Part shown: piece by piece, positions 24 to 57,578 of the stretch
Position numbering within the stretch: the first letter of the stretch is position 1
Layout: every line of letters starts with the position of its first letter
Assembly: GCA_041661545.1 (NCBI GenBank)
Contig: JBAZUH010000001.1
Location: 403,877 to 467,876, forward strand
Length of the DNA stretch: 64,000 bases
Direction of reading: 5' to 3'
DNA from: Candidatus Staskawiczbacteria bacterium
Lineage (GTDB): Bacteria > Patescibacteriota > Minisyncoccia > Minisyncoccales > Staskawiczbacteraceae
The notes under the pieces: generated by a model
What the model saw: only the letters and a program-made list of their open reading frames with translations
Told to the model about the DNA's origin: nothing
Databases searched by the model: none
Made by a program: the position numbers and the translations under genes

Positions 24-584
24 ATGAAAAATTTCCTAGTTCTATTGGGCACGCCAATCGTATCGGCCATTATCTTTTACTACGCGCTGGAATATGAATA
101 TTACATATTGGGGTACATCCTTTCTTCGCTAGTAGTTATCTGTGGGGTTACTATCATTTTATTCCCTCGCCGGTCTAAGCCAATTTGCTTAGCAATACCA
201 AAATCGGCCAGCGAGCCAGCGAAAGTGCCAATGAAATGCATGGAATTTGTTGATGCTATGTGGCCCGTGACAGAGCAATTCCCCAATGCCAGCGTATATC
301 TCAACGATTGGTACGACGGTCTATTGCCAGCCGAATGGGACACAATTAGCAGCCAACAGCTCGATGAAAAATGGCTGGCTAAATTTGTTGAAGATATAAC
401 TGACTTTTTCCAAAAATCAATAGCGTCGGCTGATGACGAACTCGGCCAAAAGCTGATGCTTGAGGGTCATGCCTTTATTCTAGCTATCGCCGTGAAGTGC
501 ACCCTGCTTGAACTCAACGTAAGTAGTATCAATTTCAACCCACCGCTTTCACCAAGGGAAGCTTTTGCCGGAGCCACTGGCTAG
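24..584 (+). CDS. hypothetical membrane protein on a G+C-elevated segment
   Basis: 186-aa ORF with two hydrophobic N-terminal helices (FLVLLGTPIVSAIIFYYAL, ILGYILSSLVVICGVTIILF). No recognisable family. Followed by a strong terminator at 636-676. Confidence 0.5.
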   Translation: MKNFLVLLGTPIVSAIIFYYALEYEYYILGYILSSLVVICGVTIILFPRRSKPICLAIPKSASEPAKVPMKCMEFVDAMWPVTEQFPNASVYLNDWYDGLLPAEWDTISSQQLDEKWLAKFVEDITDFFQKSIASADDELGQKLMLEGHAFILAIAVKCTLLELNVSSINFNPPLSPREAFAGATG

Positions 585-635
585 TTTTGTCGCGACAGAT
601 ATAATCTGTATTCGCGATTTTTTTTATAAGAACTT

Positions 636-676
636 GCCCCGTTAGAAAACAAGCTTTCTAACGGGGCTTGCTTTTT
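636..676 (+). terminator. rho-independent terminator
   Basis: 13-bp stem gccccgttagaaa / tttctaacggggc followed by ttgcttttt. Confidence 0.75.
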
Positions 677-722
677 GGCAATAAATATGGTATCTTTAAA
701 TACCTAGTAATTAAAGTCAATT

Positions 723-2194: not shown

Positions 2195-4183
2195 ATGATG
2201 AAATATATAGAATCCCATGTTCCCGGTGATGATTCCGAAGAAATTCCAGAGGCTACCATTCCGCACGCTGAAGAAACGCCAGAACTTGATAAGCCCAAAA
2301 GCGAACCAAGAGGACAAAACCTCAAAAAAGCCGAGGAGCTTAAAGAATTATTTATTAATTTAACTATTGATAAAGGGGAAGGAGATAAGAAAGAATCTGT
2401 CTTTTTTAGCGAAGAAGAAGCAATCGCCCTGTCTCAAAATGAAAGGTTGCAGGCGCATCTTTCAACAACCTTGCAACTATTTATTACCCAACGGTTTATT
2501 CAAAATACTGATAATCTAAAAGTATCTTTAACAGAATGGAAAAAAGCTGTGATGAAAGCACCACAACTTCTGCAACAAAAACCCGAGGCTCTCAACGCTA
2601 ATGCTGAGGAGTCTGCTGTAGCTTTGGGGATAACAAAACAACAGTTTATGGAAGCTGTGATGAAAAAACCATCGCTGTTGCAACAAAAACCCGAGACTCT
2701 CAACGCTAATGCCGAGAATTCTGCCGTAGCTTTGGGGATAACAAAACAACAGTTTATGGAAGCTGTGATGAAATCGCCACAATTATTGCAACAAAAACCC
2801 GAAACTCTCAACGCTAATACTGAAGAGTCTGCTGTAGCTTTGGGGATAACAAAACAACAGTTTGTAGAAGCTACGATGAAGGCACCATCACTATTACAAC
2901 GGAAACCCGAGACGCTCAACGCTAATGCCGAAGAGTCTGCTGTAGCTTTGGGAATAACAAAACAGCAGTTTGTAGAAGCTACGATGAAGGCACCAGCACT
3001 ATTACAACAAAAACCCGAGACGCTCAACGCTAATGCTGAGGAGTCTGCTATAGTTTTGGGAGTATCGAAACAACAGTTTGTAGAAGCGGCGATGAAAGCA
3101 CCACAACTTCTGTATCAAAAACCTGAAACTCTTAACGCCAATGCTGAGGAATCTGCTGTAGCTTTGGGAGTATCGAAACAGCAGTTTATAAAAACTGCGA
3201 TGAAGATGCCACCACTATTGCAACGGAAGCCCGAGGCTCTCAACGCCAATGCTGAAGAGTCTGCTGTAGCTTTGGGAGTATCGAAACAGCAGTTTATAAA
3301 AACTGCGATGAAGGCACCACCACTATTGCAACGGAAACCCGAGGCTCTCAACGCTAATGCTGAGGAGTCTGCTGTAGCTTTGGGAGTATCAAAACAGCAG
3401 TTTGTGAAAACTGCGATGAAGGCACCAGCACTATTACAACAAAAACCCGAGACGCTCAACGCTAATGCCGAAGAGTCTGCTGTAGCTTTGGGAATAACAA
3501 AACAACAGTTTGTGGAAGCTGTGATGAAGGCACCAGGGCTATTATACCAAAAACCCGAGACTCTTAACGCTAATGCTGAGGAGTCTGCCGAGGCTCTAGG
3601 TATAACCAAACAGCAGTTTATAGAAGCTGTGATGAAGATGCCACCACTATTGCAACGGAAGCCCGAGGCTCTCAACGCCAATGCTGAGGAGTCTGCTGTA
3701 GCTTTGGGAATAACAAAACAGCAGTTTGTAGAAGCTGTGATAAATATGCCAGCACTATTACAACAAAAATCCGAGACTCTTAAAAATAAATTTAATATAT
3801 ATGAAAATATGATAGACCGTCCGCTGGAGATTGTACTTAACCACCCGATCTTACTTGGTATGGCCCCTGAGAGAATACTAGGTAGCTATATTGTATGTAA
3901 AATAAATCATAAAGAATTGTCAGCGAGAAGTTTTATGCCTAATCCATTGACATCTGCGCATAAAATATTAGCCGAATCTGATTTTAAAAAATTTGAACTA
4001 GCCTACAACTATCTCAATGAATTATCAAGAAAAATTAGAGATAGGAGCAGAAGGGGGGGTAGCGAAACTGAAGTTTATAACGAAATGCTTAAATTTACAG
4101 AAAGATTTTTTGGCAAAAAGAACGAACCTATAACACAAGAGCAACTTAACACGTTTGAAAGATACATTGAAAAACATTTATAA
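2195..4183 (+). CDS. tandem 36-residue helical-repeat protein (mTERF-like repeat spacing), function unknown
   Basis: 662-aa ORF with an acidic N-terminus, 11 near-identical 36-aa repeats plus degenerate flanking repeats, and a roughly 130-aa unique C-terminal region. Confidence 0.85.
   Translation: MMKYIESHVPGDDSEEIPEATIPHAEETPELDKPKSEPRGQNLKKAEELKELFINLTIDKGEGDKKESVFFSEEEAIALSQNERLQAHLSTTLQLFITQRFIQNTDNLKVSLTEWKKAVMKAPQLLQQKPEALNANAEESAVALGITKQQFMEAVMKKPSLLQQKPETLNANAENSAVALGITKQQFMEAVMKSPQLLQQKPETLNANTEESAVALGITKQQFVEATMKAPSLLQRKPETLNANAEESAVALGITKQQFVEATMKAPALLQQKPETLNANAEESAIVLGVSKQQFVEAAMKAPQLLYQKPETLNANAEESAVALGVSKQQFIKTAMKMPPLLQRKPEALNANAEESAVALGVSKQQFIKTAMKAPPLLQRKPEALNANAEESAVALGVSKQQFVKTAMKAPALLQQKPETLNANAEESAVALGITKQQFVEAVMKAPGLLYQKPETLNANAEESAEALGITKQQFIEAVMKMPPLLQRKPEALNANAEESAVALGITKQQFVEAVINMPALLQQKSETLKNKFNIYENMIDRPLEIVLNHPILLGMAPERILGSYIVCKINHKELSARSFMPNPLTSAHKILAESDFKKFELAYNYLNELSRKIRDRSRRGGSETEVYNEMLKFTERFFGKKNEPITQEQLNTFERYIEKHL
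2579..3766 (+). repeat. 11 x 108-bp in-frame tandem repeat array
   Basis: Each unit starts aaacccgag (KPE). The period is exactly 108 bp from 2579 to 3766. Unit 12 (from 3767, KSETLKNKF) is degenerate. Confidence 0.95.
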
Positions 4184-13874: not shown

Positions 13875-13928
13875 TTATGTACTTCTTAATGCTTTTATTC
13901 TTTCTTCAACTGGTGGGTGGGTCACCCC
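13875..13928 (-). pseudogene. relic of the htpX 3' end (GVTHPPVEERIKALRST*)
   Basis: Translating the minus strand gives a second copy of the HtpX C-terminus, in AT-rich codons. It lies 110 bp from the functional copy at 13979-14035. Confidence 0.6.
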
Positions 13929-13958
13929 GAAAAAATTTGCTTCGCAAATTTTACGGGG
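13925..13958. repeat. hairpin module ccccga-stem/loop-ttttacgggg(caag)
   Basis: ccccgaaaaaatttgcttcgcaaattttacgggg. A homologous module lies inside ligA at 51156-51188. Confidence 0.8.
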
Positions 13959-13978
13959 CAAGACTCATTTCAACATAA

Positions 13979-14884
13979 TTATATATCCGTTCCACGAAGC
14001 GCACGTATCCGTTCTTCGACTGGTGGGTGGGTCATAAATAATTTTATAAACCAGCTTGTTTTTTGTTTTCCTTTATATGGCGAATTAATAAATAACGAAG
14101 CTGTTGCATCATTAGTAACTTTTAATGGAGTTGCATCTTGAGAAATTTTTTCTAATGCTCTAGCCAATCCTTCGGGATGTCTAGTAAGTAAAACAGCGCT
14201 TGCGTCGGCTAAAAATTCTCTTTTTCTTGAAATAGCTAATTGAACCAAAGTTGCTGCTATTGGAGCTAAAATTGCTGCAAAAATTCCAAGCACCATTAAA
14301 ATTACTCCTGCTTTTCCATTATCATCGTTAGACCCTCTGTTGCCTCCCCAAAAACTAACTCTCATAAACATATTAGCTAACATTGCAATGACTCCTGCTA
14401 AAATTGCTACAACTGTAGCTAATAGCATATCTTTGTTTCCAATATGCGACATTTCGTGAGCTAAAACTCCTTCTAGCTCTACTTTATCTAGCCGGTTTAA
14501 AAGCCCTTGTGTTACAGCTACAACCGCATGTTTTGCATTTCTACCTGTGGCAAAAGCATTTGGTTGCATTTCTGGAATAATATAAATTTTGGGAACCGGC
14601 AAACCTGCAGTTATACAAAGATTTTCTACAATATGATAAAGCTCTGGATTTTTATTATGTTCTACTGGTATGGCTTTATACATTGATAAAACAATTTTAT
14701 CTGACCACCAATAACTTCCAAAAGACATAAAAACGCTTAAAAATGTAGCAAAATATAAAATTGAGCTATCGTTTAACAAATAACTAAACAGCCAGCCTAA
14801 AGCTATAATAAAGACCAAAAACCCAGTTAATAGAAACCAGGTTTTTCTAGTGTTGGAACTTGCTTGTGTATATATTGTAGCCAT
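13979..14884 (-). CDS. htpX: zinc metalloprotease HtpX (M48)
   Basis: HEMSHIGNKDM zinc site, four TM segments and a THPPVEERI C-terminal motif. Confidence 0.9.
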   Translation of the reverse strand: MATIYTQASSNTRKTWFLLTGFLVFIIALGWLFSYLLNDSSILYFATFLSVFMSFGSYWWSDKIVLSMYKAIPVEHNKNPELYHIVENLCITAGLPVPKIYIIPEMQPNAFATGRNAKHAVVAVTQGLLNRLDKVELEGVLAHEMSHIGNKDMLLATVVAILAGVIAMLANMFMRVSFWGGNRGSNDDNGKAGVILMVLGIFAAILAPIAATLVQLAISRKREFLADASAVLLTRHPEGLARALEKISQDATPLKVTNDATASLFINSPYKGKQKTSWFIKLFMTHPPVEERIRALRGTDI

Positions 14885-14923: not shown

Positions 14924-16861
14924 TTACCACCCCCCTCCTCCTCCGCCACCACCGCCACCACCAGAAGAACCGCCTCCGCCACCACCAGAGCTAGATCCAG
15001 GAGGCGTAGAGGCAGATGCTATAGAACTTGAAAATCCAGAATTAAAGTTTGATAATGCTCCAGCTGTATATATTGGACCAGAAAACCATGCTGGATGATG
15101 GTCTTGCATTTGATTCTTATTAAAAATATCTGTAAATTGCTCGGCCCATTCATTTTCAACGCCTAAAGCTAAAGCATATGGTAAATATTTCTCAAAAAGT
15201 TCTGGTGTTCTCTCTGGAGGATTAAAAAAATTCATTCTATCTTTTTCTGTTACCGATAAAAACCATTTAAATCCTTTTACTTCTTCCACTAATCGCAATC
15301 CCATTTCTGTATATTGCCTTAATAAGAAATAAAAAATAATAGCCAATAAAATAACCACTGCTAGTAAAATTACAGTGCCCATAGAAGCCATACTATAAAC
15401 AATTGTAATTGCAAAAATTTCTCCAGCTAAAAATGGCAGAAAAAATAAACTTAGAAAAATTGCACCAAAAAGGTTTTTAATTTTATTTTTTTGGTTATTA
15501 AAAAACTTTTTCCACAACGCTGTTATTTGTCCAAAAATTACTACTATTCCAAAACTCCATCCAATCAACCAAACTATTATAAAAATTAAAGGAAAAATCA
15601 TACCAGCTTCACTGCTGTTAATAACCGACAATAATAATGGTATAAAAGATAAAACAATTCCTAAGAATAGCCAATTAATATTATTTGAAAAATAATTTTT
15701 GTCATACTCTTTCATCAAGGAAATGGTTAACTCCTCAGAAGCATCTTTTACTTCTAAAGTATAACCATCTAAATCAACTATTTCTTTTTTAACAAATAGT
15801 TGGGTCATCATATTTTTCTGAATTTTGTTTAAACTGCTATCTGGTTCTTTTACTTTTGTTATATAATAATGAACTTTCTTTTTATCAATTTTTATAAAAC
15901 CTTTAACTGCTAAATTAATAATTTCTGAAGTAAAACATTTGTTATCAAACCTTCTATTCACCAAATATCTAATTGATGAAGGAATCATTTTTGAAGGGGG
16001 TTTGTACATGGGTATAATACTTTTGGGTTTTGGATCTCTGCCAAATTTATTCCAAACGTACAAATAATAGAAAAAAACTAACAATAATCCAAATATCCCC
16101 AAAATAAATCCCAAATTATCTTGAAACCACCAAATTCTTTTCTGAAACAACGAAGGCTCAACAATTAATCCCTTGGGCCAACCAACAACAATTGTAAAAT
16201 CTTCTCCATTGTTTATTACTTGAGAATTTTTGAATTCAATTATACTTTTATTTCCTTCTGCATAGATGTTTGCTTGAGCGGGCACCCCCTTGCTCCCAAC
16301 ATAGCCCACATAAGAGGCTGTTGTTAGTTGATTTTTTACAGAATTAAAATCAAAGGGCAAAATAACTGTTGCGCTTGATTTAATTATAGGAAAACTCCAG
16401 TCACTACCAGTAACATTCCAATATAATTCGTCGTGATCTGAAAAAAATCCAATTTCCCTATTAACTCTATAAGAAAGCTTATAATCATAAACTCCAGGAT
16501 AAATTAAAACGTCAGAAGCTCCAATATATATTCTTATTCCATTTTTTAAATTTTCTGTGTGATAAGGTTCACTATTACCATTTCTTTGCACCCCAAGCAA
16601 ATCAAATTTAATCTTATAGTTATTGCCTAATTTATCTTTATATTTTGTTGGGAAATCTCTATATATACCATGCTCAATGGAATTGCCTGTTGCAATAACA
16701 CTTATTTCTTCTGTAACTAAAAGAGAACCAGATTTTTCAACGGTTATATTGCTAGAAAAATTAGTTATCTGCTCTTGATTATAGTTCTGAGCAAAAACAA
16801 AACTACCCGTTGCAAAACAGGATGCAACAACGACAAAGATTATGAATAATTTTTTGAACAT
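14924..16861 (-). CDS. DUF2207 domain membrane protein
   Basis: 645 aa with a signal/TM, a central TM cluster and a Gly/Ser-rich C-terminal tail. Located immediately downstream of lemA, as is typical for this pair. Confidence 0.8.
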   Translation of the reverse strand: MFKKLFIIFVVVASCFATGSFVFAQNYNQEQITNFSSNITVEKSGSLLVTEEISVIATGNSIEHGIYRDFPTKYKDKLGNNYKIKFDLLGVQRNGNSEPYHTENLKNGIRIYIGASDVLIYPGVYDYKLSYRVNREIGFFSDHDELYWNVTGSDWSFPIIKSSATVILPFDFNSVKNQLTTASYVGYVGSKGVPAQANIYAEGNKSIIEFKNSQVINNGEDFTIVVGWPKGLIVEPSLFQKRIWWFQDNLGFILGIFGLLLVFFYYLYVWNKFGRDPKPKSIIPMYKPPSKMIPSSIRYLVNRRFDNKCFTSEIINLAVKGFIKIDKKKVHYYITKVKEPDSSLNKIQKNMMTQLFVKKEIVDLDGYTLEVKDASEELTISLMKEYDKNYFSNNINWLFLGIVLSFIPLLLSVINSSEAGMIFPLIFIIVWLIGWSFGIVVIFGQITALWKKFFNNQKNKIKNLFGAIFLSLFFLPFLAGEIFAITIVYSMASMGTVILLAVVILLAIIFYFLLRQYTEMGLRLVEEVKGFKWFLSVTEKDRMNFFNPPERTPELFEKYLPYALALGVENEWAEQFTDIFNKNQMQDHHPAWFSGPIYTAGALSNFNSGFSSSIASASTPPGSSSGGGGGGSSGGGGGGGGGGGW

Positions 16862-21207: not shown

Positions 21208-21290
21208 TAGCGAGCCAAATAAATTTTTGGAGGAGGGGCAATCGCCTTGGGGACATTCCCCCGACGAGCAAAAATTTGATTTGGCGAGCG
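21208..21290. repeat. 83-bp interspersed palindromic repeat, copy A (groES-groEL spacer)
   Basis: tagcgagccaaataaatttttggaggaggggcaatcgccttggggacattcccccgacgagcaaaaatttgatttggcgagcg. Differs by about 5 nt from copy B at 31695-31776. Confidence 0.9.
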
Positions 21291-21860: not shown

Positions 21861-24680
21861 CTACAGATACCTTCCGGTATAACTTTTCTTTATTTTTGCA
21901 ATATCGCCAGGCGTTCCCTCGCCAACAATTGTACCGCCACCATCACCTCCTTCGGGGCCCAAGTCTATTAACCAATCAGCATTTTTAATTAATTCTATAT
22001 TATGCTCAATTACCAAAACTGTATTTTTTTTATCAACTAATCCCCCCAATACAGAAATTAATTTTTTAATATCGTCAAAATGCAACCCAGTTGTAGGCTC
22101 GTCTAAAATATAAAGAGTTTTTCCAGTGCCCTTGCGCGAAAGTTCTGTGGCTAATTTTACTCTTTGTGCTTCTCCTCCAGACAACGAAGTTGCTGCTTGC
22201 CCTAATTCAACATAAGAAAGTCCAACCTCTTTTAATGTTTTTAACTTTTCATACAGGCCTGTGATATTTTTAAAAAACTCCATTCCTTCTTCAACTGTCA
22301 TTTCTAAAACTTCGGCAATGTTTTTGTCTTTATAAGTTACTTCTAAAACTTCTTTGCTATATCTTTTACCATGACATTCTTCACATTCAACATAAATATC
22401 TGGTAAAAAATACATTTCTACTTTTTTTTGCCCCTGACCTTCGCAAGCCTCACATCTTCCTCCCTTTACATTAAAAGAAAACCTGCCAGCTGAATAACCT
22501 CTAACTCTTGCTTCTTTTGTTTTAGTAAAAATATCTCTTATATGAGAAAAAGCTCCGGTATATGTTGCCGGGTTGCTTCTTGGAGTTCGGCCAATAGGTG
22601 ACTGGTCAACTAAAACAACTTTATTTATGTTTTCAATTCCTAAAATTTCTTTATGAGCTCCTGGCTCATCTTTGGCTCTATAAAATTTCTTTAACAAAAA
22701 TTTTGCTAAAATATCATTTACCAAAGACGATTTTCCAGATCCTGAAACACCAGTAACACAAACAAATTTTTCTAAAGGAATTTTAACATCTATATTTTTT
22801 AAATTATGTTCGCTGGCTCCTACGATAGTCAAATAATTTTGAGCCCTATCCCGCCCCTTTGGGGCGAGGCTCGCCCGCCCTTTGGGCGAGGCGGCTACTT
22901 TTAATTTACCAGATAAATATTTTCCAGTTAAACAATCTGATTTTAAAATTTCTTTATATGTTCCTTCAAAAACAACTTTGCCACCGTGTTTCCCAGCTCC
23001 TGGCCCTATATCAACAACCCAATCAGCTGCTTGCATTGTTTGGGGGTCGTGCTCAACAACCACAACTGTGTTGCCTAATTCTTTTAGTTTTTCTAATGTT
23101 TCTATTAATTTATGTTGATCTCTTGCATGCAAACCAATAGAAGGTTCATCTAATATATACAAAACTCCAGATAATTTAGAGCCAATTTGAGTGGCCAATC
23201 TTATTCTTTGCTCTTCTCCGCCAGCAAGTGTGCCAGCTTTCCTAGATAGAGTTAGATAGGACAAACCAACATCATTTAAAAACTGTGTCCTATCAATTAT
23301 TTCTTTTAAAATTGGCTGACAAATTTTTGTTTCCCCGGCATTTAATTTTTGCCCCGCCGATTGCGGGGTCCCGCTGAGGCGGGAAAAGAAATCTCTTACT
23401 TTATCTATAGGCAAATCAACAATTTTATCAATTGATAAGTCATTAACTGTAACTGCTAAAACTTCTTGTTTTAATCTTTTGCCTTTACATTTTGGACAAA
23501 CTTTTATAACCATGTATTGTTCAATTTCTTGTCTTGTCCAATCAGAATCTGTTTCATGATATCGTTTTTCTAAATTAGGAATTACTCCTTGAAATTCTCC
23601 ATCACCATTTAAAATAATATCAACAAATTTTTTGGGCAATTCTCCTATTTCTTCATCTAAAGAAAACTTATATTTTTCTGCCAAACCAGACAAAATAGAA
23701 TAATAATATCCTTGTCTGCCAACTTTATGCGAAGCTCTGCTCCATGGCCATATTGCACCTTCAGCAATTGTTAGTCTTTTGTTTGGAATTACCAATTCTG
23801 GGTCAACTTCTAGTTTTTCTCCAAGGCCCGTGCACTCTGAGCAAGCACCATAAGGATTATTAAAAGAAAATAACCTAGGCTCTAATTCTGGCAAAGAAAT
23901 TCCACATTCTTCACAAGCAAAATGCTCAGAGAAAATTAAATCATCTTTTTTACTTTGACCAACAATAACTATTCCTTTGCCAAGATGCAAAGCTGTTTCT
24001 AAAGAATCTACTAGCCTAGATCTTTCTAAATCTTTATTTAAAATTAATCTATCAACAACAACTTCTATATCGTGTTTTTTTTGCTTATCCATTGGTCTAT
24101 CAAGAGATTCTTCAATCAAAAAAACCGTTCCGTCAATTCTTACTCTAACAAATCCACCTCTTTGAATTTCTTCTAAAACTCCATGATGTTCTCCTTTTTT
24201 ATTTCTTATAACTGGCCCTAAAATTGTAATCTCAGAGTTTTTTGGTAATTTTAAAACTTGCGTAACAATTTGGTCAACTGTTTGCCTAGAAATTAATTTT
24301 CCACACTTTGGGCAATGAGGTTTTCCTATTCTTGCATACAAAAGGCGCAAATAATCATAAATTTCTGTAATTGTGCCCACAGTTGAACGTGGATTATGAG
24401 TTGATTTTCTTTGGTCTATAGAAATTGCCGGAGAAATTCCTTCTATTTTATCTACATCGGGCTTGTCCATTACTCCTAAAAACTGTCTTGCATAAGCAGA
24501 CAAACTTTCTACATATCTTCTTTGCCCTTCGGCATAAAGCGTATCAAAAGCCAGCGATGATTTTCCCGAGCCAGAAAGCCCAGTAATAACAATCAACTTA
24601 TTTTTAGGTAAATCTAAGTCTATATTTTTTAGATTATGAACTCTTGCCCCTCGAATTTTAATGAATTCGTTTTGTGACAT
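21861..24680 (-). CDS. uvrA: excinuclease ABC subunit A
   Basis: Two ABC modules ([18 protein letters not shown]), two LSGGE signatures and zinc-finger cysteines. Confidence 0.97.
22852..22890. repeat. tandemly duplicated G+C-rich hairpin unit in frame in uvrA
   Basis: cgcccctttggggcgagg followed by ctcgcccgccctttgggcgagg. Encodes [13 protein letters not shown]. Confidence 0.8.
23352..23384. repeat. G+C-rich double hairpin in frame in uvrA
   Basis: ccccgc-cgatt-gcgggg then tcccgc-tgag-gcggga. Encodes [12 protein letters not shown]. Confidence 0.8.
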
Positions 24681-24772: not shown

Positions 24773-26062
24773 ATGGAGAAGTTTAAATTTATCACTGGGC
24801 TAAACTTTGAGAAGCTCCCTAAAACATCGGGGGTGTATTTATTTTATGGACCAAACCCTAAGCCCTATGCTCTAAGCCCTATTTATATAGGAAAAGCTAT
24901 AAATATAAAAAGTAGGGTTAAAAATCATTTTCAACAGTCAAGCTACCGCGACAATCTTTTTATAGATAAAGTTAACAAAATTGGCTATATAGAAACTAAT
25001 TCAGAAATTGAGGCTTTAATTTTAGAAGCAAATTTAATTAAAAAACACCAGCCAAAATTTAATGTTGTATGGAAAGATGACAAAAACTATTTTTATGTGG
25101 CCATTGTCCAGAATAAAGATAAAATTCCTTTTGTCTACATAACCCACCAACCCTCCTTCGCTAAAGCTTCGGAAGGGCAAGCCCCAAAATACATTGGGCC
25201 TTTTGTTGAGGGCACAGCACTTAAAAAAACATTAAAATATTTGAGACGGGCATTTCCCTACTACACACAGGCAAAACATCCAAAAACTCAATGCACTTGG
25301 TGCCATTTGGGGCTTTGCCCCGGCCCTCACCCAGATTTACCTGCATATAAAAATAATCTTAAAAAATTAACCTTAATCCTTCAAGGAAAGCGAAGCGCTG
25401 TTTTAAATAGTTTAAAACGAGAGATGAGGCAATTTTCAAATGAACATAAATTTGAAGAAGCTGGAAAAATAAGAGACCGAATTTCTAATTTACAGCAAAT
25501 TATGTCTCACAGGGGCGTAATAAGCAACTCAAAAGAAATAGTCACAAATTTGACGGCCGTCAAAAATGCACCATTTTCTTCTTTGACCAAAATTCAGAAT
25601 GCACACAGAATTGAATGTTATGATATCTCAAATATACAAGGCAAATTTGCAACCGGATCTATGGTTGTATTTACTAATGGCGTAGCCGACAAGGGCCAAT
25701 ACAAAAAATTTAAAATAAAAATGGGGGATACTCCTAACGATATCGCCATGCTAAAAGAAGTTTTAACAAGAAGGTTTAATCACCCCGAGTGGAAGTATTC
25801 CGAAGTAATTTTAATTGATGGAGGAAAAGCTCAATTAAACATAGCCATAAAAGTTAAAAAACAATTTAATAAAATTATTCCATTAATTATTTCCATTGCA
25901 AAAGGCCGGCGAGAATTATTTATTGAAGGCAAAGACAAACCAATACCTCTAAAAAATTTGCCACGTGAAATTTATAACTTAGTTTTGCAATTAGACAACG
26001 AAGCCCACCGCTTTGCTGTTACTTATCATAAGAAGTTAAGAAAAAAATCTTTGTTGCAATAA
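24773..26062 (+). CDS. uvrC: excinuclease ABC subunit C (short form lacking the C-terminal HhH)
   Basis: GIY-YIG (GVYLFYG...IYIGKA), a UVR-like helix region (EHKFEEAGKIRDRI) and an RNase H-like endonuclease domain (IECYDISN). Ends at 429 aa. Confidence 0.9.
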   Translation: MEKFKFITGLNFEKLPKTSGVYLFYGPNPKPYALSPIYIGKAINIKSRVKNHFQQSSYRDNLFIDKVNKIGYIETNSEIEALILEANLIKKHQPKFNVVWKDDKNYFYVAIVQNKDKIPFVYITHQPSFAKASEGQAPKYIGPFVEGTALKKTLKYLRRAFPYYTQAKHPKTQCTWCHLGLCPGPHPDLPAYKNNLKKLTLILQGKRSAVLNSLKREMRQFSNEHKFEEAGKIRDRISNLQQIMSHRGVISNSKEIVTNLTAVKNAPFSSLTKIQNAHRIECYDISNIQGKFATGSMVVFTNGVADKGQYKKFKIKMGDTPNDIAMLKEVLTRRFNHPEWKYSEVILIDGGKAQLNIAIKVKKQFNKIIPLIISIAKGRRELFIEGKDKPIPLKNLPREIYNLVLQLDNEAHRFAVTYHKKLRKKSLLQ

Positions 26063-29755: not shown

Positions 29756-29775
29756 CCTGCCTGCCGGCAGGCAGG
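29756..29775. repeat. 20-bp perfect G+C palindrome cctgcctgccggcaggcagg
   Basis: Lies 15 bp upstream of tRNA-Leu. A near-identical palindrome lies in frame at 53504-53523. Confidence 0.85.
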
Positions 29776-31694: not shown

Positions 31695-31776
31695 AGCGAG
31701 CCAAATAAATTTTTGAAGAAGGGGCAATCGCCTTGGGGACATTCCCCCGACGAGCAAAAATTTGATTTAGCGAGCG
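31695..31776. repeat. 83-bp interspersed palindromic repeat, copy B (8 nt upstream of the trpS ATG)
   Basis: agcgagccaaataaatttttgaagaaggggcaatcgccttggggacattcccccgacgagcaaaaatttgatttagcgagcg. Confidence 0.9.
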
Positions 31777-38296: not shown

Positions 38297-40576
38297 TTAA
38301 ACTTTTTTCCAGTTTTCGTCTTCTTCGGGGATAGCTTCTTGTGATTCTGATTCATCTGGGCCACCGCCGGGTACTAATTCTACATTACCAGATGTTCTAG
38401 TTCTTTCTGCCGAAACACCATAAACTTCACGTGGTTTTGCTCCATCAGCCGGACCTACAATTCCCTTGTCTTCAAGAATATCAATTAAGCGCGCAGCGCG
38501 CGAATAACCAATTCTTAAACGTCTTTGCAAAAATGATGCGCTAGCTTTTTGAGTTTCTATAACAATTTTTTTAACTTCTTCAAATAATGGGTCTTCACCA
38601 GCTCCACCAGAAAATTCTCCTACTCCGCCGTCTTCTCTTCCTCCTTCAACTTTTTCAAGGCTTTCTTCTAAGCTATGACTTAAAGCTTCTTGAGGGTCTC
38701 CACATTTTTTACCTTGCTCAACAATAAATGCAGCCACTTTTTGAACTTCTTTTTCAGAAATATATGGCCCCTGAATTCTAGTAATTTTAGATGACTTAGA
38801 AGATAAAAATAGCATATCTCCTGCACTTAACAATTTTTCAGCACCCGAAGTATCTATAACAGTTCGTGAATCAATTTGCGAAGACACTTGAAAGGTGATT
38901 CTTGTAGGAACATTAGCCTTAATTAAACCTGTAATAACTTCCACTGATGGCCTTTGTGTGGCCAATACCAAGTGAATTCCAGTTGCTCTAGCCATTTGAG
39001 CTAATCTTACAATTCCAGCTTCAATTTCTCTGCCTTTTGCAGCCATTAAATCAGCCAATTCGTCAACTACAAAAACAATGTAAGGCATTTGCAAGCCCGA
39101 AGCAATTATAGATTTATTTGAATTATAAGAACCAATATTTCTTGCCGGAACTTCTGAAAATACTTCAAAACGTCTTTCCATTTCATGAGTTAGCCAAGTT
39201 AAAGCATTAATAGTTTTTGTTGCGTCATAAATAACCGGGCACAATAAATGGGGCATATCATTATAATGCTGAAACTCAACTCTTTTTGGGTCAACCATTA
39301 TCATTCTTAAATTTTCTGGAGTACATTTATATAATAAACTTAAAATTAAAGTATTTAAGAAAATAGTTTTTCCTGTACCAGTTGCTCCAGCCACCAATAA
39401 GTGTGGGCCATCTGTAATGTCTGTAAACACAGCCGAGCCAGACACATTTCTACCCAACGCAACAGTTAGTGGGCTAGTGGGGCTTTGATAAGCTGGCTGA
39501 GATATTAAATTTCTTAATGTAACAATAGATCTAACTTTATTTGGAACTTCAATTCCAACCAAAGATTTGCCAGGAATTGGAGCTTCAATTCTAATTGGGT
39601 GAGCTGCCAAAGCCAAGGCTAAATTGTTAGATAATGTTGTAATTTTTGAAAGCTTTACACCCTCGGCTGGCTTAAATGCATACTGAGTAACTGTTGGACC
39701 AACATTAACCTCTGCCATTTCAACTGGAATACCAAAATTTTCTAAAGTGCTCTTAATTATCATCGAGTTTTCTTTGATATTTCCAGAAGTTGGAGCTACT
39801 TCATTTTTATTTAATAAATCTAGTGGAGGCAACATATAATTATTCTTATTGGCAGTGACTGGTTTTTTTATATCTGCTTTTTCTATTTCTTCATTTCCTT
39901 TTCTAAATAAAGTTATTCTTGAAGCAACCACGGGTCTTGCTTTGTCTTGTTTATCTGCCTCCATGCCCTTAATTTTAGGACCATCTTCTTCTTGCTTGTT
40001 AGGCGCAAAAGTTGGTTTTTCTTCTTTCTCTTTTTTGGGCATTTCTGACCATATAAATTGTAAGAAAATAAATAATCCAATTAGTAAAATTGTAGCAAAT
40101 ATAATATTAGCAACTAAAACTCCAAAAAGCCCAGCAAATAGTTTTGCCAATAATAATCCTACCCATCCTCCGTTCATTAATGCTTCGGGCCAATCTTTAA
40201 CAGCTAAAATGCCCGCGATGCCCACTAAAGAAATCAAAACAGCTAATGCCATTGCCAAATCTTTGCCCTTTTTTCTAGTTCTTAAAAAAATTAACCCAGC
40301 AACAAATAAAAACAATGGAATTGTAAAAAAAGCTCTTCCAATTAAAAAATCACAAACTTGTGCAAAAATTTCTCCTGCATAACCAGCTTTGTCAAAACGA
40401 GGGAAAGATAAAACAATAATTATAGCAACCAAAAATAACAAAGTTGCCTTTATCCACCTTTTAGTGGAATTACTCAAAATGGAATCTTTTTTTACCTCTT
40501 TCCCATCTTTACTATTTTTCCCGTTTCTTAAGTCTAAATTTTTATTTTTACCGTTTCTTTGATTATTTTTTGCCAT
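38297..40576 (-). CDS. ftsK: DNA translocase FtsK/SpoIIIE
   Basis: N-terminal TM domain, Walker A GATGTGKT, and a C-terminal gamma winged helix (LQRRLRIGYSRAARLIDILE). Confidence 0.95.
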   Translation of the reverse strand: MAKNNQRNGKNKNLDLRNGKNSKDGKEVKKDSILSNSTKRWIKATLLFLVAIIIVLSFPRFDKAGYAGEIFAQVCDFLIGRAFFTIPLFLFVAGLIFLRTRKKGKDLAMALAVLISLVGIAGILAVKDWPEALMNGGWVGLLLAKLFAGLFGVLVANIIFATILLIGLFIFLQFIWSEMPKKEKEEKPTFAPNKQEEDGPKIKGMEADKQDKARPVVASRITLFRKGNEEIEKADIKKPVTANKNNYMLPPLDLLNKNEVAPTSGNIKENSMIIKSTLENFGIPVEMAEVNVGPTVTQYAFKPAEGVKLSKITTLSNNLALALAAHPIRIEAPIPGKSLVGIEVPNKVRSIVTLRNLISQPAYQSPTSPLTVALGRNVSGSAVFTDITDGPHLLVAGATGTGKTIFLNTLILSLLYKCTPENLRMIMVDPKRVEFQHYNDMPHLLCPVIYDATKTINALTWLTHEMERRFEVFSEVPARNIGSYNSNKSIIASGLQMPYIVFVVDELADLMAAKGREIEAGIVRLAQMARATGIHLVLATQRPSVEVITGLIKANVPTRITFQVSSQIDSRTVIDTSGAEKLLSAGDMLFLSSKSSKITRIQGPYISEKEVQKVAAFIVEQGKKCGDPQEALSHSLEESLEKVEGGREDGGVGEFSGGAGEDPLFEEVKKIVIETQKASASFLQRRLRIGYSRAARLIDILEDKGIVGPADGAKPREVYGVSAERTRTSGNVELVPGGGPDESESQEAIPEEDENWKKV

Positions 40577-49512: not shown

Positions 49513-50604
49513 CTACCCTCTAATTCTAATATTTTGTAAAATTCCTAATGATATAAAGTTTCCTATTAAACCAGAACCTCCATAACTAACAAAAGGCAAA
49601 TAAATTCCCACAACGGGCAGTAAAGAAAGGTTCATTCCTATATTAATAAAAAATTGGGCAATTAAAATCATTGCAAAACCAGAAGCAAACAAGCGCGGAA
49701 AATTAGAGCTAGATTGAATTGCAGTTTTTAACACTCGCCACACCAAAGCACCATATGCCAAAAACAACGCCAAAACCCCCAACATTCCCCATTCTTCAGC
49801 TATAACAGAAAAAATAAAGTCTGTATGAGGCTCGGGCAAAAACCCATATTGCACCTGACTACCCTTGGCTAAGCCTTCTCCAAAAATTTGCCCCGAGCCA
49901 ATAGAAATTTTTGTTTGATTTTGACTCCACGAAGCTCCTAAATAATCATATGGCACTAAAAATGCTGTTACCCTTTCTTTTTGATAATCTTTTAATAAAA
50001 AAACCCATGCAAAACCAGCAACTAACAAAAAACACAAAGAAAGAATTACAAAGTGCTTTATTTTAATACCAGATATTAATAAAATGCCCAGCCATATTGA
50101 AACCAACACTGCTGTGCCCCCCAAGTCTGGCTTTGTAAAAACAAATATAGCTGGGATTAAAACATATAAGCCAGAATAAAAAATATGTCTAAATTTATAC
50201 ATTTCTACGTGACGCATTGAAAAATATTTTGCTAACAAAATTACCAAAACAATTTTGGCTGGTTCTATTGGGTCTAAAGACAATACACCTATTTTATACC
50301 ACCCCCTTGTTCCCCGGATAACTGGAGCAAAAAAATGAAGCCCTACAAGCAATAGTATACATATGGCGTAAAAAATTAAAATTATATAAGAATTATTTCT
50401 TAAAATTCTATAATCAAAAAAACTTACAATAAACATTATCAACAAGCCCGCTACAAAAAAAATAATTTGTTTAGTAAAATTTGAAAAATCTGCTTTAGCA
50501 ACTGCCACACTATAAAGTGCCAACAAACCAAAACACACCAGCACTACCGCCGGTAAAATTAACCCCCAATCTAGTTTTTTAATCTGACTTGATATTATAC
50601 CCAT
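49513..50604 (-). CDS. ftsW: SEDS family protein (FtsW/RodA)
   Basis: 363 aa, about 10 TM. Contains PEPHTDFIFSVIAEEWG and SYGGSG motifs. Confidence 0.9.
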   Translation of the reverse strand: MGIISSQIKKLDWGLILPAVVLVCFGLLALYSVAVAKADFSNFTKQIIFFVAGLLIMFIVSFFDYRILRNNSYIILIFYAICILLLVGLHFFAPVIRGTRGWYKIGVLSLDPIEPAKIVLVILLAKYFSMRHVEMYKFRHIFYSGLYVLIPAIFVFTKPDLGGTAVLVSIWLGILLISGIKIKHFVILSLCFLLVAGFAWVFLLKDYQKERVTAFLVPYDYLGASWSQNQTKISIGSGQIFGEGLAKGSQVQYGFLPEPHTDFIFSVIAEEWGMLGVLALFLAYGALVWRVLKTAIQSSSNFPRLFASGFAMILIAQFFINIGMNLSLLPVVGIYLPFVSYGGSGLIGNFISLGILQNIRIRG

Positions 50605-52655
50605 TATTTGATTAATTCTAAGAATTGTTGTTCAGTTAAAATTGTTACACCAAGTTGGCGGGCGCGGTCGGCCTTGCTTCCTGGTTCTGAACCAACTATA
50701 ACATAACTAGTATTTTTTGAAACAGATTCTGCGGTGTCGCCACCCAATTCTCTTATTTTTGCTTTTGCTTGGTCACGGCTCATTGTTTCTAGGCTTCCAG
50801 TTAAGACGAAGGTTTTGCCTACTAATTTCGCCGAAGCACCGGCTGAGGCGCCCGGTCGAATGACCGGGTCAATTTTCACAAATTTTTCTAATTTATCTAT
50901 AAATCTAGTATTATCTTTGTCGGCAAACCATTCATAAATTGATTTTGAAACAACTGGCCCAATATCTAAAATTGCTTCAAAATCTTCTAATTTTGCATCT
51001 TTAATTTTTTTAATATTACCAAAATGTTTTGCCAAATCAATTGCAGTTTCTTCGCCAACATTTCTAATGCCCAAAGCATAAATAAACTTTGCTAAAGAAA
51101 TTTCTCTTTTTTCTTGTATTGATTTTATTAAATTTTCTGCCGATTTTTCTGCAAACCCCGATACAAAAGCCTCCGGCTTTTTACGGGGCAAGCCGTCTTC
51201 TAAATTCACGATGTCTCCCACTTTAAGCTCAAATAAGTCCGAGGAATCATTAACTAAGCCATAATCAAATAGTTTATCAATAATTTTGGGGCCCAAGCCA
51301 TCTATATTAAAAGCTGTGCGCGAAACAAAATGATAAAAATTTCTTCTTTGTTTGGCAATACATTTTACATTTGGGCACCGCAAAATTGCTTCACCTTCTA
51401 ATTTTACCAGCTTTGCCGAACAGCTAGGGCACTTTTCTGGCATTTTAAAAGTTTTTTCATGACCAGTTCTTAGTTCTGGCAAAACTTTTATAACATTTGG
51501 AATAACATCTCCCGCCCTTCCCACTATTACAGTATCTCCAATTTTTAAACCTAGTCTTTTAATTTCGTCTTCGTTGTGCAAAGTTGCCCTTGTTATTGTA
51601 ATTCCAGTTACTTGCACGGGCTCTAGCACTGCAACAGGCGTAATGGCCCCTGTTCTGCCCACCTGGACCCTTACATCTACAACTTTAGTAGTTGCCTCAG
51701 CTTGCGGAAATTTATAAGCTATAGCCCCCCTTGGCGCCTTGCCAACAACTCCTAATTCTTCAAAAATTTTATTATTATTTATTATTACCACCACGCCATC
51801 AATTTCATAATCTAATTTTTCTCTTTCTTGTATCCAATGCTCTCTAAATTCAAAAACTTCTTTTAGCGATTTGCAATATTTATTATGTTTATTAGTTTTA
51901 AACCCTAATTCTTTTAATATTTTATGTTTTTCTTCGTGAGTAACAACTTCGTTGCTAATTAAATCATAAGCAAAAGAATCTAACTTTCTACCTGATGTTA
52001 TTTTGGGGTCTAACTGCCTAACCGAACCTGCTGCGATATTTCTTGGATTAGCATAAACTGGCAAACCTTTTGCTTGTTGCTCTTTATTTATTCTATTAAA
52101 TTCTTTTTTAGTAATAAAAACCTCACCCCTCACAACAAGTTGTTCGGGAATTTTCAATTTTAAATTTTCAATTTTCAATGGAACTGCCTCAACTGTTTTT
52201 AAATTTTGAGTGATATCTTCACCAACACTGCCGTCCCCCCTAGTAGAACCTGTTATAAAATTTCCATTTTTATAAATTAGCTCAATGGCTAAGCCATCAA
52301 TTTTTAATTCACAGTAATAATTTATATTGGATTTTTCTTTTTCGGGCACTAATTTTATAAATCTTTCTTGCCAATCTTGCATATCTTCTTGCGAGAAAGC
52401 ATCATTAAAAGAAAGCATTTTATGCAAATGTTTTATTTTTTTAAATTCTTTTAAAGGCTTGCCCCCAATTCTCTGAGTTGGCGAATCTGAAGTTATTAGC
52501 TCAGGATATTGTTGCTCTAAATCAAAAAGTTCCTTTTTCAAGGAGTCTAGTGCAAAATCAGAAATTTCTTGCTTATCTAAAACATGATAAAGATAACGAT
52601 GATGATTTATCGTTTCTCTTAATTTTTTTACTCTTTGCTCAATATCTTGTTTCAT
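50604..52655 (-). CDS. ligA: NAD-dependent DNA ligase
   Basis: Adenylation motif CELKIDGLA, a Zn finger (CPSC...C), HhH repeats and a C-terminal BRCT (GKTFVLTGSL). Confidence 0.97.
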   Translation of the reverse strand: MKQDIEQRVKKLRETINHHRYLYHVLDKQEISDFALDSLKKELFDLEQQYPELITSDSPTQRIGGKPLKEFKKIKHLHKMLSFNDAFSQEDMQDWQERFIKLVPEKEKSNINYYCELKIDGLAIELIYKNGNFITGSTRGDGSVGEDITQNLKTVEAVPLKIENLKLKIPEQLVVRGEVFITKKEFNRINKEQQAKGLPVYANPRNIAAGSVRQLDPKITSGRKLDSFAYDLISNEVVTHEEKHKILKELGFKTNKHNKYCKSLKEVFEFREHWIQEREKLDYEIDGVVVIINNNKIFEELGVVGKAPRGAIAYKFPQAEATTKVVDVRVQVGRTGAITPVAVLEPVQVTGITITRATLHNEDEIKRLGLKIGDTVIVGRAGDVIPNVIKVLPELRTGHEKTFKMPEKCPSCSAKLVKLEGEAILRCPNVKCIAKQRRNFYHFVSRTAFNIDGLGPKIIDKLFDYGLVNDSSDLFELKVGDIVNLEDGLPRKKPEAFVSGFAEKSAENLIKSIQEKREISLAKFIYALGIRNVGEETAIDLAKHFGNIKKIKDAKLEDFEAILDIGPVVSKSIYEWFADKDNTRFIDKLEKFVKIDPVIRPGASAGASAKLVGKTFVLTGSLETMSRDQAKAKIRELGGDTAESVSKNTSYVIVGSEPGSKADRARQLGVTILTEQQFLELIK
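51156..51188. repeat. hairpin module ccccga-stem/loop-ttttacgggg(caag) in frame in ligA
   Basis: ccccgatacaaaagcctccggctttttacgggg. Encodes LPRKKPEAFVSG. Confidence 0.8.
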
Positions 52656-52657
52656 AA

Positions 52658-53572
52658 TTAATTACTACAATAAAACTCAGCAATATCGGATTTATTTTCA
52701 TTGCCCCCGTTATCTGTAGCTATAAGATAAACCCAATACGATGTATTATTATCCATGTTTGACCAAGGCTTGCTATAATTTCCATCTCCCAGCGACTTCA
52801 ATGTTAATTCAGACGTCTCGCTATCTACTATGTACATCTTAACGGTGTTTACTCCATCCTTATCATACACATCGGCTGAAACTGTATTATCGCCTCCGCA
52901 ATCAATTTGAAAATTACTTATCGTTGGTTCTATATTTTTTGTTTCTATAACTATTTGAATTTGCCTACCAGCTCCACCGTAAAAACCCTTTGAACTAATT
53001 TCAAATTTATCAACATCCCCCGCACTATAAACTCTGGCTTCTGTAGAATAAGATATATCGTCGTCAGAGCTGTTTGTATCGCCAGCGTTGATAACAGAAC
53101 TAAAAGAAATTGTACAATCGTCACAAACTTCTGGATTGCAACCAATAGTAGGATTGTTGTCCCCTGGTTGCGGAGATTCAAAACCATTGTTGGGCTGGCA
53201 ATAAATACTATGCTCTGTGGGCGAGGTGCTGTTAGGATCAGACTTACAAGCAGTATTATAATTATTGCTTATATCATACATAGAGCATAAACCTCTTTCT
53301 GCTTTTTTGCCATTTGTTATTGTTGGCCTAACATTCCAATCATAATAAAGAACTTTTTCAATTCCGCTATCAGCGGCGTAAAGTCCAATTACAGAATTGC
53401 CTATATTTCTTATAACTTTTATTTCGCTGTATAAAAGCGCGCTTATAGACAAAACCACAGATAAAATAATTATCATTATAAACAGCGTGATAATTAATGA
53501 AACGCCTGCCTGCGCAGGCAGGCCATTTTTATTTCTTTTTAATTTTTCTTTATTGTTCTGCATCATATACAT
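52658..53572 (-). CDS. PilX-like minor pilin / pilus-associated protein
   Basis: N-terminal hydrophobic helix GVSLIITLFIMIIILSVVLSISALLYSEI, as in the PilX N-domain. The start could be at M3/M4. Last gene of the minor-pilin set. Confidence 0.6.
   Translation of the reverse strand: MYMMQNNKEKLKRNKNGLPAQAGVSLIITLFIMIIILSVVLSISALLYSEIKVIRNIGNSVIGLYAADSGIEKVLYYDWNVRPTITNGKKAERGLCSMYDISNNYNTACKSDPNSTSPTEHSIYCQPNNGFESPQPGDNNPTIGCNPEVCDDCTISFSSVINAGDTNSSDDDISYSTEARVYSAGDVDKFEISSKGFYGGAGRQIQIVIETKNIEPTISNFQIDCGGDNTVSADVYDKDGVNTVKMYIVDSETSELTLKSLGDGNYSKPWSNMDNNTSYWVYLIATDNGGNENKSDIAEFYCSN
53504..53523. repeat. G+C palindrome gcctgcctgcgcaggcaggc in frame in the PilX-like gene
   Basis: Encodes GLPAQAGV just before the TM helix. 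Twin of 29756-29775. Confidence 0.85.
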
Positions 53573-56773: not shown

Positions 56774-56808
56774 TTCAAAAGATACCAGCAAAAAGCTACT
56801 AATAAAAA

Positions 56809-56844
56809 TAGGCGCGTTTTTGACGGCCGTCAAAAACGCGCCTA
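56809..56844. repeat. 36-bp perfect palindrome downstream of the PaaX-like gene
   Basis: taggcgcgtttttgacgg|ccgtcaaaaacgcgccta. Confidence 0.9.
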
Positions 56845-56859
56845 AAATTTAAAACTATT

Positions 56860-57438: not shown

Positions 57439-57494
57439 ATTTTTTACAATCTTTTGTTAACTATACTTTTATTATAGCACCAGCCATAACAATT

Positions 57495-57578
57495 AAAATA
57501 GTAGCGTTTTTGGCGTTCGCCAAAAACGCTACTATTTTAATAAAGTTTTTTATGTTATTCGGTAAAAACGCTACTATT
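57495..57578. promoter_or_regulatory. 44-bp palindrome plus a third half-site upstream of the PaaX-like gene
   Basis: aaaatagtagcgtttttggcg/ttcgccaaaaacgctactatttt at 57495-57538, and taaaaacgctactatt again at 57563-57578. Confidence 0.6.

Follow-up and report, generated by a model that had tools for sequence, protein, structure and literature searches.

Why should the DNA ligase gene of an AT-rich bacterium hold two G+C-rich hairpins within its reading frame? The question is raised by ligA in a 64-kb stretch of DNA (hereafter the window) of about 34% G+C, whose proteins match Candidatus Staskawiczbacteria, members of the Parcubacteria in the candidate phyla radiation (CPR). The gene encodes an NAD-dependent DNA ligase with the full Pfam domain set, which is a 100% match to a Candidatus Staskawiczbacteria LigA and aligns with LigA of Escherichia coli (2OWO) with an E-value of 1e-171. 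A preliminary description had proposed that two G+C-rich hairpins in ligA are inserts; their sequences and coordinates matched, and both proved to be true inserts when compared with orthologues. We consider it probable that both arose when miniature, non-autonomous G+C-rich palindromic elements of 18-38 nucleotides (nt), of which AT-rich Candidatus Staskawiczbacteria genomes hold several families, inserted in frame, and that the elements are selfish or neutral and translated as tolerated loops. The gene and its two in-frame hairpin inserts are as follows.

50604..52655, minus strand: ligA, NAD-dependent DNA ligase, 683 amino acids (aa), from the open reading frame (ORF) and homology
51156..51197, minus strand: insert (a), 14 codons, DGLPRKKPEAFVSG, from alignment and the DNA of filled and empty sites
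50829..50867, minus strand: insert (b), 13 codons, PVIRPGASAGASA, in the linker before the BRCT domain, from alignment, translation and folding

Positions 51156-51188 read ccccgatacaaaagcctccggctttttacgggg, followed by caagcc, and lie in frame in ligA, giving the product ...LEDGLPRKKPEAFVSGFAEKSA..., in which the peptide stretch of insert (a) is LPRKKPEAFVSG. On the sense strand, the hairpin proper (51156-51192) is CTTGCCCCGT-AAAAAGCC-GGA-GGCTTTT-GTAT-CGGGG, with a minimum free energy (MFE) of -22.2 kcal/mol and a z of -3.0 relative to shuffled controls. We judged both inserts against 120 aligned LigA orthologues of 71-100% identity. Insert (a) stands in place of the single Arg codon of an empty site, LER|FAEKSA, that was found in 112 of the 120, including the four nearest relatives of the window LigA (81-83% identity); an insert is present exactly there in the other eight. 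The E. coli enzyme had been expected to be shorter at this point and indeed shows a 13-residue gap in the alignment ('LE----RMG---------PKSA'), and the orthologue alignment suggested earlier as a check showed that distant relatives, and most of the close ones, do not have the insert. The carriers, which are scattered over a neighbour-joining tree of LigA, have either long-type alleles (n = 4: GLPRKKPEAFVSG, LPRSKPKALLPG, LPHGEPRRALRG and GLPRSKLKALLPG) or short-type alleles (n = 4: GLPRRMMG or GLPRRMTG, and DSPRRMTG), the short-type DNA being CCCCGTC-GAAT-GATGGGG. At the DNA level, every allele is a G+C-rich hairpin with CTTGCCCCGT...GGGG|TTTGC in common, and one of them (L002) differs from the empty site by exactly 36 additional nt. 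Both hairpin arms are missing at empty sites, and neither is derived from the flank.

The preliminary description had also suspected structure-preserving evolution of the hairpin. In agreement with this, 87.5% of the stem cells are paired in the four long ligA alleles, as compared with 34-59% when the partner columns are slid, and three pairs have changed on both sides, some at synonymous or third codon positions. The stems are thus maintained by paired substitutions.

In insert (b), the hairpin b1 (50851-50868, CCCGGTCGAATGACCGGG) reads CCCGGTC-ATTC-GACCGGG on the coding strand; it is perfect and carries a CGCC tail, the unit being written CCCGGTCATTCGACCGGG+CGCC. A second, weaker hairpin, GCCGGTGCTTCGGC, lies at 50830-50843, and the alternative ACCGG/CCGGT pairing reported before, like the encoded peptide just ahead of the BRCT domain, was present. 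Folding of insert (b) gave a z of -3.0 relative to shuffled controls, and some form of it occupies the pre-BRCT linker of about 10 of the 120 orthologues. An AlphaFold model built with 106 aligned sequences has a predicted local distance difference test score (pLDDT) below 50 and coil at LigA residues 486-500 and 599-608, which are the two inserts, each lying between well-predicted helices or domains. The Gly/Pro/Ala/Arg-rich insert peptides are therefore predicted to form disordered loops between helices or domains. Every insert found, in ligA or elsewhere, kept the reading frame.

Are these hairpins private to ligA? Insert (a) had been called homologous to a hairpin associated with htpX, and the two do have CTTGCCCCGT...CGGGG in common, with inner stems that differ and are each self-complementary. 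We refer to such hairpins as family (a), whose conserved parts are a (C/T)TTG tag and a clamp of CCCCG and CGGGG, with an inner stem that varies but is A+T-rich and self-complementary. Besides insert (a), the window holds three copies.

13925..13962, minus strand: copy 2, CTTGCCCCGT-AAAATTTGC-GAA-GCAAATTTT-TT-CGGGG, 20 nt downstream of the htpX stop
633..677, plus strand: copy 3, CTTGCCCCGT-TAGAAA-ACAAGC-TTTCTA-ACGGGG then CTTGCTTTTT, after ORF 24..584
23349..23368, plus strand, antisense to uvrA: short copy, TTG-CCCCGC-CGATT-GCGGGG, from a pattern match

The copies were compared by motif and descriptor searches, their inner stems being too variable for MAFFT to register. The pattern CCCCG-N(10-35)-CGGGG matched four times in the window, where 0.11 matches were expected, with TTG 5' of the stem in all four hairpins; the exact 10-mer CTTGCCCCGT matched three times (0.05 expected), each time forming the 5' arm of a long hairpin that ends in CGGGG. 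Copy 2 (13925-13958 being ccccgaaaaaatttgcttcgcaaattttacgggg, then caagac) folds with an MFE of -20.6 kcal/mol (z -4.9), and copy 3 (hairpin 633-667), which has a T-tail and is terminator-like, with an MFE of -23 kcal/mol (z -6.0). CTTGC(C) stands on both flanks in only three family (a) copies. A strict 23-base pattern drawn from the ligA and htpX copies found ten further copies in metagenomic contigs, at sites that included the rpsG-fusA and rplR-rpsE gaps, a position upstream of a uvrB-like gene, the end of an ORF and positions after tRNA genes. The hairpin is therefore not confined to ligA and htpX: further copies stand at 633-667, in uvrA (23349-23368) and at the ten metagenomic loci, and the ligA insert is not conserved in distant relatives; a lack of further copies together with such conservation would have spoken against the earlier proposal. 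Zero copies of family (a) or of family (b), described below, were found in viral contigs, and the sole Rfam matches were tRNAs, two of them in the window and the others in the metagenomic loci.

At one metagenomic locus (L024 1752-1785), a family (a) hairpin provides the final five codons (LPRKM) and the stop of a 517-aa ORF. The termini of repetitive extragenic palindromes (REPs) have likewise been reported to supply stop codons.

Insert (b) also belongs to a family, with the consensus CCCSGTC-ATTC-GACSGGG plus a CGCC tail, which occurs in either orientation and has one copy within the window. A counterpart of the window ligA sequence CCCGGTCATTCGACCGGGCGCC is CCCCGTCATTCGACGGGGCGCC in the uvrA gene of a different genome (L034); it lies in the same frame, has a compensatory swap of one stem pair (G-C to C-G) and gives HPVIRRGA. 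In other ligA alleles the element is reversed and encodes GAPS[DN]DG, and an apparent head-to-head dimer, seen from peptides only, is PVIRPGAPSNDGA in LigA and PVIRQGARSNDRA in UvrA.

Sharing between ligA and other genes extends to further families. The window uvrA (21861-24680) contains two clusters of G+C-rich hairpin inserts, 22851-22894 (14 residues) and 23333-23384 (12 residues). The hairpin at 23349-23368 belongs to the insert SGTPQSAGQ, which the closest UvrA orthologues do not have, and at the second uvrA site other orthologues carry a different adjoining insert, GGSASGG or GGPASGG. Many sporadic inserts of this kind account for the spread in length of UvrA orthologues, 917 to 996 aa. 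A two-hairpin element of about 30 nt, TCCGCCCAAGGCGGA + CCAGCCTCGGGCTGG (TCCGCC-CAA-GGCGGA + CCAGCC-TCG-GGCTGG), which encodes SAQGGPASGW, was found in ligA (L006 4576-4605), uvrA (L033 gene bases 1372-1405; P0280) and uvrC (L033) of different genomes, and it sits after a Phe codon wherever the flank was read (L006 ligA, L033 uvrA and P0280 uvrA). The peptides IPAKAG and LPAQAG are common to LigA and UvrA orthologues, LPAQAG being found in LigA of L005 and P0084. None of SAQGGPASGW, IPAKAG and LPAQAG was found in 120 HtpX orthologues. Two more hairpin features of the window belong here.

22851..22894, minus strand: second G+C-rich multi-hairpin insert of uvrA, MFE -35.3 kcal/mol, with APKGR in few UvrA orthologues only
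53504..53523, minus strand: hairpin of a different family, GCCTGCCTGCGCAGGCAGGC (GLPAQAG), in a pseudopilin-like ORF, its palindrome also intergenic at 29756-29775

The latter palindrome, CCTGCCTGC..GCAGGCAGG, occurs at 29756-29775 (intergenic, just upstream of tRNA-Leu) and 53504-53523 in the window, and at two other loci (L005 14212-14231 and L003 2283-2300). The pseudopilin/type IV pilus cluster adjoins ligA on one side, with ftsW on the other. Overall, we counted 74 G+C-rich perfect hairpins in the window plus 22 related loci, as compared with about seven in local shuffles, an excess of about ten-fold; roughly half of the 74 are intergenic and half intragenic.

Taken together, orthologous genes either have or lack a whole hairpin, both arms included, at a precise position, and the same elements occur at non-homologous sites (ligA, uvrA, uvrC and intergenic) and in different genomes. 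The finding is thus broader than first seen, comprising several families, both ligA inserts, and uvrA and uvrC in addition; insert (b) comes from a mobile family that is also represented in uvrA, such inserts are a general feature of the clade, and the htpX module includes a replaced gene 3' end, to which we turn below.

Several other hairpins and repeats were noted in the window. We rejected the UvrC hairpin at 25309-25332 as an insert because its motif HLGLCPGP is also present in the UvrC of L033, and the FtsK hairpin at 38488-38503 encodes the gamma-domain motif RIGYSRAARL, which we take to be native from what is known of the family. Within the DnaG primase gene, the hairpin TCCCCC-GTA-GGGGGA (8803-8817) encodes SPVGG. 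An 82-nt intergenic repeat with a GGGGACATTCCCC hairpin and no Rfam match is present at 21209-21290 and 31695-31776 (96% identical), upstream of groEL/uvrA and of a Trp/Tyr-tRNA synthetase gene, respectively. A palindromic family, AATAGnnGCGTTTTTGRCGnnCGYCAAAAACGCnnC, has copies at 25531-25572, 56801-56846, 57491-57536 and 57549-57578, of which the first lies within the coordinates of the uvrC ORF (24773-26062) and the other three are intergenic. ORF 2195..4183, which matches the mTERF family, contains eleven tandem copies of a 108-nt (36-aa) repeat at 2434-3813, and the gene for a DUF2207 membrane protein (14924..16861) has a terminal long Gly/Ser run in a G+C-rich stretch (14924-14983).

How might such elements move? 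The copy beside htpX offers a concrete lead, since the hairpin is accompanied there, and at tRNA genes, by a replaced 3' end. Two features flank copy 2.

13979..14034, minus strand: htpX 3' end now in use, THPPVEERIRALRGTDI followed by the stop, part of direct repeat D7
13875..13924, minus strand: displaced old htpX 3' end, THPPVEERIKALRST followed by the stop, with AGA codons, adjoining the 3' end of hairpin copy 2

On the coding strand, the order is the in-use htpX end, a 20-nt spacer, the hairpin and the displaced end. The two ends form the direct repeat D7 (13896-13924 versus 14006-14034, 90% identical). All three Arg codons of the in-use end are CGN, whereas Arg is AGA or AGG in 84% of cases in the genome; the displaced end is two codons shorter than the in-use copy and typical in codon usage. 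All 120 HtpX orthologues end like the in-use copy. The same arrangement was found at four loci (htpX, L025, L029 and L030): at its 3' end, the hairpin runs straight into a second copy of a gene 3' end, displaced and diverged, and the intact end lies 16-26 nt upstream of the hairpin. At L025 (845-984) and L029 (12191-12319), a complete tRNA-Thr is followed 17-26 nt on by a diverged copy of its 3' part, with the hairpin exactly at the T-stem/T-loop junction of that copy and with a covarying T-stem (GTCGG/CCGAC versus ATCGG/CCGAT). At L030 (273-413), the hairpin follows tRNA-Leu and lies inside a partial T-arm-like sequence. The layout at htpX and the tRNA genes resembles the outcome of site-specific integration, or of homology-facilitated illegitimate recombination, that imported a replacement gene end together with the hairpin.

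One could go further and regard the family (a) hairpins as the recognition or recombination structure of an undescribed miniature integrative module of candidate-phyla bacteria, of about 60-110 nt, which would carry a replacement 3' end for its target (htpX, tRNA-Thr or tRNA-Leu) and whose hairpin would abut the displaced original end, the ligA and uvrA copies being off-target or solo. We think this unlikely to be correct. If it were, a trans-acting recombinase that reads folded hairpins would await finding, and the preference for DNA-repair genes could exceed simple tolerance. Closely related, and to our minds just as doubtful, is the proposal that the hairpin is a terminal part or recombination site of a site-specific integrative module, which would have left the ligA copy behind as a solo remnant or footprint. 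The abutting duplicates at the four loci and the foreign-looking codons of the in-use htpX end argue for it, as does a CGGGG|TT junction common to ligA, L025, L029 and L028; yet ligA is colinear with its orthologues and shows no duplication, the flank is not duplicated at 633, in uvrA or at L023, L024, L028 and L032, no gene for an integrase was seen close by, and the elements are far smaller than known integrative elements. An integron attC site, for its part, is an imperfect palindrome of at least 57 nt with RYYYAAC and GTTRRRY cores, found beside cassettes and an IntI integrase. An attC-like identity was rejected for the hairpins studied here, which measure 33-38 nt, have the 5' flank CTTG and no AAC/GTT core pair (a 3' G|TT being present in several copies), and are accompanied by no integrase in the window.

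The stem conservation described above would also be expected if the hairpins were functional mRNA structures, such as places where translation pauses between domains, sites of processing by RNase or of stabilisation, or attenuators within the gene, and not selfish DNA. This explanation, which we hold to be improbable, draws on the location of the inserts (one in a loop between helices of the HhH domain, the other in the HhH-BRCT linker, both being boundaries of a domain or motif), on the compensatory changes that preserve the stems, on loops that include GAA, GAAA and UUCG-like sequences, and on the resemblance of copy 3 to an intrinsic terminator; in addition, three of three stem transitions give a G.U pair on the sense strand (twice in L003 and once in L004), a number too small to count. 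It is countered by the 112 of 120 orthologues, the closest relatives included, that do without insert (a), by the occurrence of the same element in both orientations relative to the gene, and by the lack of a consistent bias between sense and antisense folding energies. An intrinsic terminator consists of a G+C-rich stem with a T-run directly after it on the transcribed strand. Insert (a) has no T-tail and was not called by the terminator scan, nor were insert (b) and the htpX copy, so an intragenic terminator was discarded; only 636-667 qualifies as one. The Gly/Pro/Ala/Arg/Ser-rich peptides in variable linkers leave one more reading, that the inserts are lineage-specific protein loops which arose in place, by slippage or as template-switch quasi-palindromes, with the hairpin a by-product of G+C-rich Gly/Ala/Pro/Arg codons. 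Native conserved motifs (FtsW APVIRG, UvrC HLGLCPGP and the FtsK gamma domain) do form G+C hairpins as well. However, identical nucleotide sequences at non-homologous and intergenic sites largely refute such an origin, the covariation extends to synonymous positions, and the two orientations of one element give different peptides. A quasi-palindrome, moreover, would have had to copy one arm from the flank; since empty sites have neither arm and neither comes from flanking sequence, simple template switching is excluded. We therefore consider an origin in place very improbable.

We return to the insertion of miniature palindromic elements, which we favour. As selfish or neutral DNA, the elements would be read through and translated, and selection would spare only insertions that leave the frame intact and land in tolerant loops. 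Once in a conserved gene, an element may spread among lineages by homologous recombination, and this proposed spread would account for the filling of one site in lineages that are scattered. New insertions, arising without target-site duplication, could be made by an enzyme that acts on folded single-stranded hairpins or through a repair or recombination route; as a conjecture, a Y1/HUH enzyme that works on folded single strands, of the sort suggested for REPs, would be the most natural candidate.

Several observations weigh against this interpretation. A Pfam scan of about 45 window proteins gave no hit to a transposase, integrase or reverse transcriptase, and no target-site duplication or other signature of transposition emerged when filled and empty ligA sites were compared. 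The covariation comes from four sequences only, the copy numbers (four for family (a), one for family (b)) cover only 64 kb of the 738-kb source genome, and the inserts are presumed to be translated solely because they preserve the frame. Patchy occupancy of one site could also be explained by repeated precise loss. Finally, a look for flanking ligA sequence carried along with insert (a) gave an ambiguous picture: similarity to the closest LigA relatives dips over about 30 residues upstream of the insert, a stretch that is variable in all orthologues and whose best matches are empty alleles.

Which known elements do these hairpins resemble? The closest described kind is that of intragenic REPs. 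In the GTAG- and CGTC-tagged super-families, REPs are tagged stem-loops of 20-40 bp that lie mostly just downstream of genes, with tens to thousands of copies per genome and an association with RAYT, a Y1/HUH transposase, in the GTAG families only; a smaller number, either single or in the head-to-head dimers that are common among REPs, are contained entirely in ORFs and keep the frame (Di Nocera et al, 2013; PMC3733652). Genes for replication and repair, among them uvrA, uvrB and a DNA ligase, hold such intragenic REPs strikingly often, and the same gene region can be hit in different species (PMC3733652). The units described here agree with REPs in size and fold, being G+C-rich stem-loops of 18-38 nt with MFE values of -17 to -23 kcal/mol and z of -3 to -6. 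The htpX copy, copy 3 and several metagenomic copies lie downstream of genes. The units differ from REPs in their ends, which lack a GTAG or CGTC tag and show (C/T)TTG in family (a) and a CGCC tail in family (b), CGTC being found inside the (b) stem; in the highly variable inner stem of family (a); and in the host, a member of the Patescibacteria with 34% G+C, tagged REPs being found mostly in Proteobacteria. The Pfam scan of about 45 window proteins revealed no RAYT. Because the tag is missing and no RAYT was seen in the window, we do not file the elements in the REP super-families.

Rickettsia palindromic elements (RPEs) are palindromic selfish repeats inserted in frame in unrelated protein genes of a small AT-rich genome, and are translated and compatible with the protein fold; those of the RPE-1 type measure about 100-150 bp and encode a conserved peptide (reviewed in PMC10969869). 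The elements here resemble them in their in-frame insertion at tolerant positions of unrelated genes, as judged from the frame of all inserts and the low-pLDDT coil of the ligA inserts, and are set apart by their size of 18-38 nt; a relationship in sequence is not to be expected. The GC clusters of yeast mitochondria (e.g. GC42) are short, sporadic G+C-rich palindromes of a very AT-rich genome, with structure-preserving substitutions, units that merge or shuffle, and exchange between lineages by homologous recombination, the mechanism of amplification being unresolved; they are organellar, mostly intergenic and have putative target-site duplications (Wu & Hao, 2015; PMC4478555). The likeness extends to the AT-rich setting, sporadic distribution, structure-preserving change, apparent merger of units and proposed exchange by recombination, whereas no consistent duplication distinguishes filled from empty ligA sites. 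The SPRITE elements of Streptococcus pneumoniae are mobile and terminator-like. Copy 3 (633-677), terminator-like and in a dispersed repeat family, recalls them, in contrast to the ligA, uvrA and htpX copies, which have no T-tail; the G+C clamp of family (a) is basal and its inside A+T-rich, the reverse of a typical terminator. No account of such elements in candidate-phyla bacteria was found in the literature searched.

Our interpretation would add the CPR to Rickettsia and some Proteobacteria as hosts of 'selfish' palindromic DNA inserted in frame, with elements that, at 18-38 nt, are the smallest among the kinds compared. Their recurrence in ligA, uvrA and uvrC fits the earlier, unexplained report that intragenic REPs favour replication and repair genes, and filled and empty alleles, which exist naturally by the hundreds, provide material with which such a preference for repair genes may be tested. 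Many small length differences among CPR orthologues would then be nucleic-acid elements and not protein adaptations, which bears on annotation, alignment, phylogeny and structure prediction in these organisms.

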